This document shows positions 7,101 to 10,100 of a stretch of 64,000 bases of DNA, piece after piece. Positions within the stretch are counted from its first letter, which is position 1. Each line of letters opens with the position of its first letter. The notes below the pieces were generated by a model that was not told the origin of the DNA, did no database searches, and was given only the letters and a program-made list of their open reading frames with translations. The DNA is from an uncultured delta proteobacterium (GTDB taxonomy: Bacteria > Desulfobacterota > Binatia > UBA9968): NCBI GenBank assembly GCA_963755715.1, contig CAVWLW010000050.1, positions 53,189-117,188 on the forward strand. Direction: 5' to 3'. Position numbers and translations under genes: made by a program.

Positions 7101-10100
7101 TTTGCTGTCACGGATCAGCGGTCAGGAAGACATCGTCATCGGTTCGACGATCGCCGGACGCAATCGACCAGAGACCGATGGTTTGATCGGATTTTTCATC
7201 AATGCCCTGCCATTGCGCTACCGATCTTTCCGGCGATCCAAGTTTCGTGACCTTGCTTCAACATGTCCGTGAACTTTGCCTCGATGCCTATACCAACCAA
7301 GACGTACCTTTCGAAAAGATCGTCGAAGAACTAAGACCTCAACGCGAGCCTGGCCGTAATCCGATTTTCGATATTCTCTTCAATATCGCCGACACCTCCG
7401 AGCGCATATTGACATTGGCCGGGTGCGAAGTAACCAAGCTTGCGCAAGTCGATCCGGCAGCAAAATTCGACCTCGTGCTGCACGCGCCCGAAGTTGTCGG
7501 GAAGATCGAACTGGCGATCGTCTACAACACGGCGCTATTCCGCGAAGGACGAATTAAGCTCCTGTTGGAACAATTCGCTTCCCTGCTCGCGCAAATTGTA
7601 AAGAAACCAGACTTGCCCATCGGTCATTTGTCTTTACTGACCGATGGGTCGCGCACAGTGCTTCCGGATCCTAAAGAAACTCTTGACGATAGCTGGGAAG
7701 GAGCGATTCACGAATTGTTGGCTGAACAAGCGCGTCGTTCACCTGCAAAGCTAGCTATCGTCGACCCTGAACAAACCTGGACTTACGCTGATCTCGATCG
7801 ATGTGCCAACCGGCTAGGGAATGGCCTCATCGCTTCGGGCATAGAACCGAAGGATTTGATCGCGATTTACGCTCATCGAAGTTCATCGCTCATCGTAGCA
7901 CTGTTCGGAATCCTCAAGGCCGGCGCGTCATTTCTCATCTTGGACCCGGCCTATCCTGCGGCGCGCACCATCGATTACTTGCGCATTGCCCAACCGAAAG
8001 GCTGGCTCCAGCTCGAAGGCAGTGGCGAACTGCCAGATGAACTATCCAGTTGTCTGGACAGTTTGCAGATGCGCTGTCGGATGAACGTTCCACAGTCGAA
8101 GGCGGAGATTTTCGACAACTTGTCGGCATACGCCGACACTGAACCAGCAACGAACGTAACTGCCGATAACCCGGCGTACGTCGCTTTCACTTCCGGCTCC
8201 ACCGGCGAACCGAAGGGCGTAGTCTGCCGCCACGGTCCCATCACTCACTTTCTCCCATGGCAAAAGGAGGAATTTGGGCTGAGTGAAACAGACCGTTTCG
8301 CGATGCTATCCGGCCTCGCCTACAGCCATCTGCATCGCGATGTTTTCACTGCGATGTCCCTCGGCGCAACACTCAATATTCCGAATCCATCCGAAGCTCG
8401 TTCTCCAGAACGTTTAGCTCAATGGCTCGAAAGAAATGCCATAACAGTTCTCCACCTCACCCCGGCTCTCGGCCAACTACTGTTAACAAGCGGCGACGCT
8501 TGCTTGCCGTCGGTGCGCCGAGTGTTTTTCGGCGGCGATGTTCTCACCACCGAAATGGTGGCGAGCATTCGGCGGCTCGCGCCCAACGCGACCATCGGCA
8601 GCTTCTACGGCGCGACAGAAACCCAGCGCGCAGTCGGTTATTACGAGATCGCGGACAATCCGCCAACTGATCACATTGAGTCCACTAAACCAGTCGCGCT
8701 AGGCCGGGGAATTAAAGATGTGCAACTCTTGGTGCTAAACAAGAGTCGGGCAGTTGGCCGGCGTCGGCGAGCTCGGGCGAGCTCTTCGTGCGCAGCCCTC
8801 ACTTGGCTGAAGGTTACCTCGGCGACGAGGAGCGAACTGCGCAAATGTTTATCGTCAATCCTTTCACCAAGGACCCGGAGGACCGCCTCTACAGAACCGG
8901 CGAGCTCGGACGATATCTAACCGACGGCAACGTCGAATGGGCGGGCCGCAACGACCGCCGAGTCAATATCCGTGGCTTTCGCGTCGAGCTGGAAGAGATC
9001 GAAGCCGTTCTCAAACAACACCCGGCCGTCAGAGACGCCGCAGTCGTTGTGCAGTTTGAATTTGCCTCGATAGCCGAAACGGCGAGCGCGGCGTGGCGCG
9101 AGCCGGCGGGGAGCGTTCGACGGCTCGCGCCCAATGCGACCATCGGCAGCTTCTACGGCGCGACAGAAACCCAGCGCGCGGTCGGCTATTTCGAAATCGC
9201 GAACGATTTGGCAGCGGCTCAGATCTACGCTCACAAAATCATTCGCACTAGGCCGCGGCATCAAAGACGTACAACTGCTCGTGTTGAATAAAAGTCAGGA
9301 GTTGGCGGGGATTGGCGAGCTCGGGGAGGTCTTCGTGCGGAGTCCTCACTTGGCTGAAGGTTACCTCGGCGACGAGGAGCGAACTGCGCAAATGTTTATC
9401 GTCAATCCTTTTACCAAGGACCCGGAGGACCGCATTTACAGAACCGGCGAACTTGGACGATATCTAACGGACGGAAACGTCGAATGGGCCGGCCGCAACG
9501 ACCGCCGAGTCAATATCCGCGGCTTTCGTGTCGAGCTGGAAGAGATCGAAGCCGTCCTGAAGCAACACCCGGCCATCAGAGACGCCGCAGTGTTACTGCA
9601 ACGTTTCGAAATTCCGATTCCGATAATCCGCCAAAATCGGATCAGCGCCTCGTCGCCTACGTCGCCGCTAATGAAGAATCACAAAGCTTGGCGGATTTGC
9701 TCCAATCATACTTGAGCACACGCCTGCCAAATTACATGGTGCCAGCACATTTTGTCGTTTTGCAGTCGTTGCCGCTGAGTCCCAACGGCAAAGTCGATTA
9801 CCGGTCGCTGCCCTCAGTGCAGTTCTCAGCTAGTGTTGACGCCATCGCCGCGCGACGAGGTTGAAAACAAGCTATGCGAGATTTTTGCCAAGTTGCTCGG
9901 GTGCTCCGAAGTCGGCATCGAGGAGAATTTTTTCCGCATCGGCGGACATTCTCTGTTGGCAGCCCGTGCTGCCGCGCGCATCGGCGACGCCTTCGGTGTC
10001 AACCTCGACCTGTCGACGTTTTTAGAAAGCCCAACCGTCATCGGCTTAGCCAAGAAAGTCGAGCTCGCTTCGCATCATTGGACAGACCGCCGCGGAATCG

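Follow-up and report, generated by a model that had tools for sequence, protein, structure and literature searches.

A 548-nt head-to-tail repeat within an NRPS adenylation domain of a metagenome contig, probably a false duplication of two strain alleles

The stretch of DNA analyzed here (64,000 nucleotides, hereafter the window) carries a gene for a four-module nonribosomal peptide synthetase (NRPS), whose carrier (T) domain motifs lie at 2847, 6113, 9914 and 13401 and whose adenylation (A) domain units begin at 2070, 5327, 8570, 9118 and 12608. These two series of positions confirm that the repeat with which we are concerned sits within the third A domain of the window, where the first-pass annotation had placed it. 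The A domain of the third module (7721-9801, on the forward strand like all features described below) was delimited by Pfam matches and by its motifs, and is split by single-base indels. The A5 motif SFYGATE can be read from the sequence at 8600-8620 and again at 9148-9168, and the A8 motif GRNDRRVNIRGFRVELEEIE at 8944-9003 and again at 9491-9550, whereas the A9 motif LPNYMVP (9724-9744) and the A10 motif PNGKVDY (9781-9801) each occur once, outside the repeat, according to both the sequence and the alignment. The thiolation (carrier) domain motif GGHS of module 3, identified as a member of a repeat family that recurs across the modules, occupies 9914-9978. The extent of the repeated unit, read against the standard core motifs of A domains in their established nomenclature, is therefore A5-A8, with A6 and A7 in between, and not A6-A10 as had been annotated; in the frame-corrected translation, too, motif reading finds A5-A8 twice, and A9 and A10 once.

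The Pfam matches agree with this reading of the motifs. In the frame-corrected translation that begins at 7202, the AMP-binding profile (PF00501) matches residues 174-539 and is covered from position 2 to position 384 of its 384 positions, and another, partial stretch of PF00501 matches as well, as does the beginning of AMP-binding_C (PF13193). Copy 2 corresponds to positions 307-384 of PF00501 and to the first 20 positions of PF13193. PF00501 together with PF13193, core motifs in their proper order and a carrier domain behind them are what is found in NRPS adenylation domains of the ANL superfamily, and the domain itself is an ordinary representative of this kind. The remaining A domains of the cluster are 65-71% identical to the repeated segment.

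The repeat is direct and head to tail. Repeat search and pairwise alignment bear out the period of 548 nt at the place previously reported, with a start-to-start spacing that drifts (548/549/548/547), as the copies differ by three 1-nt indels. The repeat search returned two pairs of segments, namely 8776-9053 with 9323-9600 (92% identity over 278 nt) and 8557-8676 with 9105-9224 (85% over 120 nt), and a weak likeness between the copies persists past the end of copy 2, to ~9660. Tandem Repeats Finder reported zero rows at the repeat, because the 548-nt period exceeds the longest period that this program reports (500). Copy 1 of the A5-A8 unit extends over ~8564-9061; its head (8564-8631) resembles the contig's own backbone, and the remainder (8632-9053) is an allele that we call alpha (YYEIADNPPTDHIESTKPVALGRG...GQLAGVGELGELF). 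It is followed by a GC-rich junction or filler of ~50 nt (9062-9111), delimited by alignment to relatives and by a short-query blastn search, and then by copy 2 (~9112-9612), which is an allele that we call beta (YFEIANDLAAAQIYAHKIIPLGRG...QELAGIGELGEVF) and runs on into the downstream backbone. The copies are identical at 418 of 480 aligned positions, i.e. far above chance; this amounts to ~87% identity and 13% divergence, in place of the ~90% and ~8% estimated in the first pass. Moreover, the identity is distributed very unevenly: 65/68 positions agree over the initial 68 nt and 247/264 over the final 264 nt, but only 106/148 over the 148 nt between them.

The arrangement is unique among the sequences compared. 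A protein search with the open reading frame at 7202-8917 revealed close homologues with 79-94% identity, mostly in metagenome assemblies from the ENA, with some hits named Candidatus Binatia or Binatus. A scan of species-representative genomes with the 572-aa frame returned distant matches only (24-47% identity), too remote to indicate orthology. Five contigs from five other samples (L015-L019) are colinear with the window and carry the segment in a single copy each, so that the two alignments of the window overlap by ~480-510 nt on each of them. Among 65 further loci, taken from JGI metagenome contigs, 59 align with the greater part of the query in a single colinear segment, and the duplication is present in 0 of the 65. 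In terms of the distances between successive A-domain units, the window gives 3257, 3243, 548 and 3490, as compared to 3229, 3217 and 3483 in L015, 3230, 3222 and 3488 in L016, and 3205, 3237 and 3500 in L018; throughout the other loci (65 loci) this spacing is 3.0-3.5 kb, and the value of 548 occurs in the window only. A DNA pattern consisting of A8, 125-155 arbitrary nucleotides and A5 likewise had 0 matches in the fetched loci and the JGI metagenome contigs, and was found in the window alone. Finally, a search of 5.8 billion protein clusters with the junction-spanning peptide returned no protein that extends across the junction. The nearest match (P0124) covers the reading frame of copy 2 only. 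Two further candidates, P0138 and P0152, which cover 84-88% of the junction peptide, turned out to be ordinary single-copy A domains among the sequences that we read.

The period of 548 nt equals 3 x 182 + 2, and the two extra bases go back to a pair of single-base insertions in copy 1. One is a G at 8748, which shifts the frame by +1, and the other is a C at 8778, which adds a second +1 shift; both are private to the window, being missing from L015-L018, and their removal contributes to restoring the frame. It is because of these two insertions that the period is 548 rather than 546. A third private insertion, a G at 9245, was recognized from the alignment to relatives and from the frame correction, and shifts the frame within copy 2. 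Upon removal of all three (8748, 8778 and 9245), one open frame of 803 codons (7202-9612) passes through both copies, and the corrected unit measures 546 nt, i.e. 182 codons. Even in the uncorrected sequence a stop-free stretch (8716-9288) crosses the junction. Since the frame is open across the junction once three bases are deleted, the join is in frame. The earlier description of copy 2 as out of frame is thus correct only when the starting frame of copy 1 is taken as reference, and does not apply to the join itself.

Comparison with the relatives shows that the two copies have separate affinities. Many allele classes are seen between A5 and A6, and throughout the family the loop that follows A5 is hypervariable; the short-read contigs contain many classes of it. 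The alpha class, which reads GYYEIADNPPTDHIESTKPVALGRG...GQLAGVGELGELF after A5, is found in P0001/L015 and P0073/L016, and the beta class, which reads GYFEIANDS.AAQ..HK.IPLGRG...QLAGIGELGEIF after A5, in P0022/L017, P0004/L018 and P0013, in every case as one copy. The variable stretch of copy 1 is identical to that of L015/L016 at 140 of 147 positions (95%) and to that of L018 at 113 of 147, and the variable stretch of copy 2 matches L018 at 136 of 146 positions (93%); over the 148-nt variable stretch the copies match each other at 106 positions (72%). A sliding comparison extends this picture to the flanks. Upstream of the repeat (7772-8520) the window is 96-99% identical to L018, and through most of copy 2 and onward to ~10570 it is 93-97% identical to it, with 78% in a hypervariable loop (9551-9677); only at 8671-8968 is it nearer to L015 (95-97%). 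For copy 2 taken by itself, the sliding identity to L018 amounts to 93-96%. If copy 1 and the filler are left out, the remaining sequence is L018-like throughout. The heads of the two copies have one window-private base in common. Changes of affiliation are also seen elsewhere, as L016 changes its allele class inside the unit and the window changes lineage at ~4400. These comparisons show that the copies are different pre-existing alleles, which were already distinct by the time they became neighbors.

The junction itself is peculiar. The filler (9062-9111) aligns poorly with the conserved stretch 'QRLVAYVAA' that every relative possesses (17/30, counted by hand from the alignment), and its end matches the sequence that normally precedes the unit ('E.VAS') at 8 of 13 positions, counted in the same way. 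At best, therefore, it could represent a heavily garbled 'QRLVAYVAA' followed by 'E.VAS'. A short-query blastn search of the window and 84 loci returned no significant match to the filler besides itself, and the alignment of the junction reveals neither a clean breakpoint nor homology that might mediate unequal crossing-over. The join contains no stretch of N, and to our knowledge the filler does not resemble a Nanopore adapter. In place of the clean or short-homology join, reproducible independently, by which a genuine duplication is recognized, one finds ~50 nt of orphan sequence, in a junction that neither the 65 loci nor the JGI contigs nor the protein database contain.

The repeat lies in a part of the gene that is disturbed in other ways. 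From ~4630 on, the NRPS is broken into many short open stretches, and single-base indels are concentrated in the part between ~4400 and ~14900, which begins where identity to L015 drops from 99-100% to less than 85%; from position 1 to ~4400 the window is 99-100% identical to this contig of another sample, without gaps. In the 6.3 kb aligned to relatives, the indels private to the window comprise 13 insertions of 1 nt and 4 small deletions (~2.7 per kb), none of them in long homopolymers. Each of the other contigs compared shows private indels, in a set of similar size; no frameshift is common to any two, and the majority consensus of five contigs over block A is an intact ORF of 1122 codons. 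The 83 substitutions private to the window include 0 nonsense changes, with 46 synonymous and 37 non-synonymous; in block A the private substitutions are distributed over the codon positions as 9:8:31, and this bias toward the third position shows purifying selection. Two apparent in-frame stops (6482-6484 and 9862-9864) result from reading a wrong local frame after compensating shifts, and are not nonsense mutations. In JGI short-read contigs the ORFs over the same module run uninterrupted for at least 1450 codons, whereas the ENA loci named 'contig_N' are broken; in one of the latter, L019, rimM, trmD and smc are split as well. In the window, the genes at 20-64 kb exhibit full-length Pfam coverage, with the sole exception of an IS110 transposase that has a single shift.

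Thus, the hallmarks of a decaying pseudogene, i.e. nonsense mutations, relaxed selection, deletion-biased indels and lesions common to relatives, do not describe this gene, and its 'pseudogene' state looks technical. That six lineages were inactivated independently, with no lesion in common, is far less probable than errors in the consensus of a region where strains vary. The suggestion that the duplication contributed to pseudogenization accordingly finds no support, as the frame shifts are private 1-nt insertions, the consensus ORF is intact, nonsense changes number 0 and the short-read assemblies are uninterrupted. The compared ENA assemblies look like long-read assemblies because of their contig_N names, which we take to be the default naming of the Flye assembler. 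From the error pattern, the Flye-style names of the closest relatives and the size (201,206 bp) of a contig that encodes P0124, the protein matching the reading frame of copy 2, the window probably belongs to a long-read metagenome contig of a Binatia-like soil bacterium. In one large long-read soil project, which may not be the source of these contigs, the assemblies were made with metaFlye and polished by Medaka once against indel errors (PMC12313526).

How, then, did two copies of the A5-A8 segment come to stand side by side? One of the two readings offered at the outset was an old duplication in place in a single genome, followed by ~8% divergence of the copies and contributing to the inactivation of the gene. 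It would account for a repeat that is direct and tandem, and it suits a surrounding gene full of frame breaks. However, copies that arose in this manner should be mutual closest relatives with a roughly uniform divergence, whereas here the divergence is 4%, 28% and 6% in three adjacent sub-segments and each copy is nearer to another sample's single-copy allele than to its partner. The match of the copies to separate single-copy alleles (L015/L016 on the one hand and L018 on the other), together with their mutual identity of 72% in the variable stretch, therefore for practical purposes rules out an in-place duplication followed by divergence. In addition, the frame breaks are private 1-nt insertions in a gene free of nonsense changes and with selection visible in its private substitutions, and each of the single-copy relatives would have to have lost one copy precisely, which is unparsimonious; we consider such an origin highly improbable. 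Even less can be said for a fusion, by deletion, of the C-terminal A-domain portions of two similar modules that were neighbors. NRPS modules are paralogous, and the loss of everything between A8 in one module and A5 in the following one would look alike locally, but the window retains the same four modules at the spacing of the relatives (L015, L016 and L018) plus 548 nt, and the identity of the segment to the cluster's other A domains is no more than 65-71%, so that this scenario has hardly any probability.

A more serious competitor is a real tandem duplication, in which an alpha fragment from a related strain was inserted beside the resident beta segment, yielding an in-frame partial duplication of the A domain by 182 codons. 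The fragment could have been circularized and integrated by a single crossover in the conserved A5, or it could have been joined by illegitimate recombination with filler DNA. The duplication is in frame and its junction is open once the three 1-nt insertions are removed, as expected of any duplication that is tolerated; the near-identity of the heads (65/68) and their common private base fit a crossover in the conserved A5 stretch; and the mosaic NRPS lineages, with the class switch in L016 and the switch of the window at ~4400, render recombination plausible. On the other hand, the duplication is seen in none of the 65 related loci and is absent from the protein database, its orphan junction of ~50 nt is neither clean nor marked by microhomology, and it would require both the uptake of DNA from another strain and an illegitimate join, each of them rare. 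It is also placed in the sole part of the contig with technical noise. Furthermore, to judge from the architecture of ANL domains, a protein with a second A5-A8 inserted between A8 and A9 would be unlikely to fold or function. Taken together, we regard a real duplication as unlikely, with perhaps a minor chance of being correct, and the duplication is most probably not a genuine genomic feature.

We therefore favor a mis-assembly that joined two strain variants of one A domain, which the first-pass annotation had named as the other possibility and which is the best-supported reading, because the copies are two allele classes in tandem, the arrangement is unique among the 65 loci, the junction is an orphan and the stretch is locally noisy. 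Specifically, the repeat is probably a false duplication, made by the assembler, of two strain alleles of a single A-domain segment (A5-A8). Each copy has its counterpart in an alternative allele that occurs singly in the population (alpha in L015/L016, beta in L017/L018), and the repeat is situated where false duplications are to be sought, i.e. where allelic divergence is raised or the consensus is poor, as indel noise is confined to ~4.4-14.9 kb. The alpha and beta strain alleles would have co-occurred in the source sample, and the assembler would in some way have placed both end to end and not as alternatives. A strain-variable NRPS interior would be expected to receive poor coverage and polishing per strain, and these in turn could produce random single-base indels that mimic pseudogenization, as well as one structural error.

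Several points run counter to a false duplication. One is the lack of an N run at the join, and another that the published artefact is known from diploid vertebrates and not from metagenomes. The unit comprises exactly 182 codons in frame, with no stop at the junction, after removal of the three insertions; the chance of such an outcome is ~1/3, and lower if the absence of a stop is counted. Moreover, the flanks are of one lineage and the heads of the copies have a private base in common, therefore the foreign-looking piece is only ~450 nt long, i.e. below the typical switch of strain between long reads.

It is instructive to compare the locus with known phenomena. Tandem duplications in bacteria arise by unequal or illegitimate recombination, and, as in the present case, they consist of a direct head-to-tail repeat with one novel junction. 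Here, however, the copies are not sisters, the junction is a filler without mediating homology and no relative exhibits the same event. Natural recombination and sub-domain exchange are known in NRPS adenylation domains, where a segment is replaced and one complete A domain is left. The lineages compared in this work are mosaic in a similar manner, with breakpoints inside the A domain; but whereas sub-domain exchange leaves one A domain, here the segment is found twice in tandem, which is not a recognized functional architecture. A closer analogy to the false duplication that we favor is offered by heterotype false duplications, described in diploid vertebrate genomes, in which divergent alleles are assembled in tandem, with the highest frequency at the most divergent alleles (Ko et al. 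2022, Genome Biol 23:205, PMC9516828). In that work they are recognized by a read depth roughly halved over either copy, by reads that are clipped or discordant where the copies meet, and by allele-specific single-copy k-mers. In both cases divergent alleles are adjacent in one assembled sequence and may be mistaken for gene gain or disruption. In vertebrates they derive from the two haplotypes of a diploid, whereas here they would come from strains that co-occur in a bacterial metagenome; a further difference is that the copies are separated by ~50 nt of orphan sequence and not by a gap in the form of an N run.

A real duplication would represent an intermediate, caught in the act, in the evolution of an NRPS through intradomain recombination between strains, and a modest example of how intragenic recombination of alleles may lead to partial duplication of an A domain; as such it would be of some interest for the diversification of NRPS modules, although it would hardly surprise specialists. 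If it is an artefact, as we think probable, it calls for caution, since strain-variable NRPS interiors in long-read metagenome contigs may carry false partial duplications and clusters of indels. Errors of this kind resemble pseudogenization, and would mislead the annotation of gene clusters, the counting of domains and the prediction of products.

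When the beginning of the window (1-4750) is aligned to positions 2056-6805 of L015, a related colinear contig from another sample (ERZ25039555 contig_32495), the two sequences are 99-100% identical and gap-free up to approximately position 4400, past which the identity drops to 60-80% within about 300 nt. The stretch at 4400-4700, which lies in the second A domain, exhibits 79-85% identity to the window's own fourth A domain (11680-11990), and is closer to it than to the second A domain of L015. Either two modules have exchanged the N-terminal part of an A domain here, or this contig contains a second chimeric join. 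The middle of the second A domain (4700-5600) is the poorest-quality part of the NRPS cluster: its identity to all references is low (about 30-67%), and it is covered by four overlapping short frames (4772-5215, 4920-5363, 5320-5529 and 5351-5593).

In the third A domain, the loop after the A8 motif (9560-9660 in the window, and the equivalent site in the five related contigs L015-L019) is of low complexity and variable length. In the relatives this loop includes repeated CCGAAAC/CTCGAAA units (peptide PENPKPETRNSK); its length is different in each contig, and in several of them it is frameshifted. Within the duplicated A5-A8 unit, positions 7243-7980 of L016 form a mosaic: the variable stretch is of the alpha allele, but from approximately the A7 motif onwards the sequence closely matches copy 2 of the window. 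In addition, private 1-nt insertions of L016 scramble about 50 residues of P0073, the alpha-type protein that this contig encodes.

In L019 (4861-11464) the NRPS ends after about 4.5 kb and adjoins housekeeping genes, namely trmD, rimM, rpsP, ffh, an ftsY-like gene and smc. Several of these genes are broken into fragments, which indicates that indel errors are spread contig-wide in L019.

Directly upstream of the NRPS, the window encodes the C-terminal TPR part of an AAA_16/TPR (MalT-like) regulator (97-1170, forward strand; L015 counterpart at 625-3225), the remainder being absent because the window begins within the gene; the same order is kept in L015 and L018. Downstream of the final condensation domain, the GC content falls to 0.46 at 14000-18000, compared to about 0.55 elsewhere. 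The ORFs of this low-GC stretch (15037-15429, 16153-16988 and 17133-17795) have no Pfam match, and the corresponding site in L015 encodes a 638-aa protein, likewise without Pfam matches.

Outside the NRPS, the sole broken gene noticed in the window is an IS110-family transposase (48439-49627, forward strand), split into two overlapping ORFs that correspond to DEDD_Tnp_IS110 (48439-49143) and Transposase_20 (49112-49627), which implies one frameshift. Elsewhere, the gene at 32783-33937 (reverse strand) could be defence-related, as its 384-aa product bears a TIR domain at the N-terminus (TIR_2, with a weaker match to ThsB_TIR).
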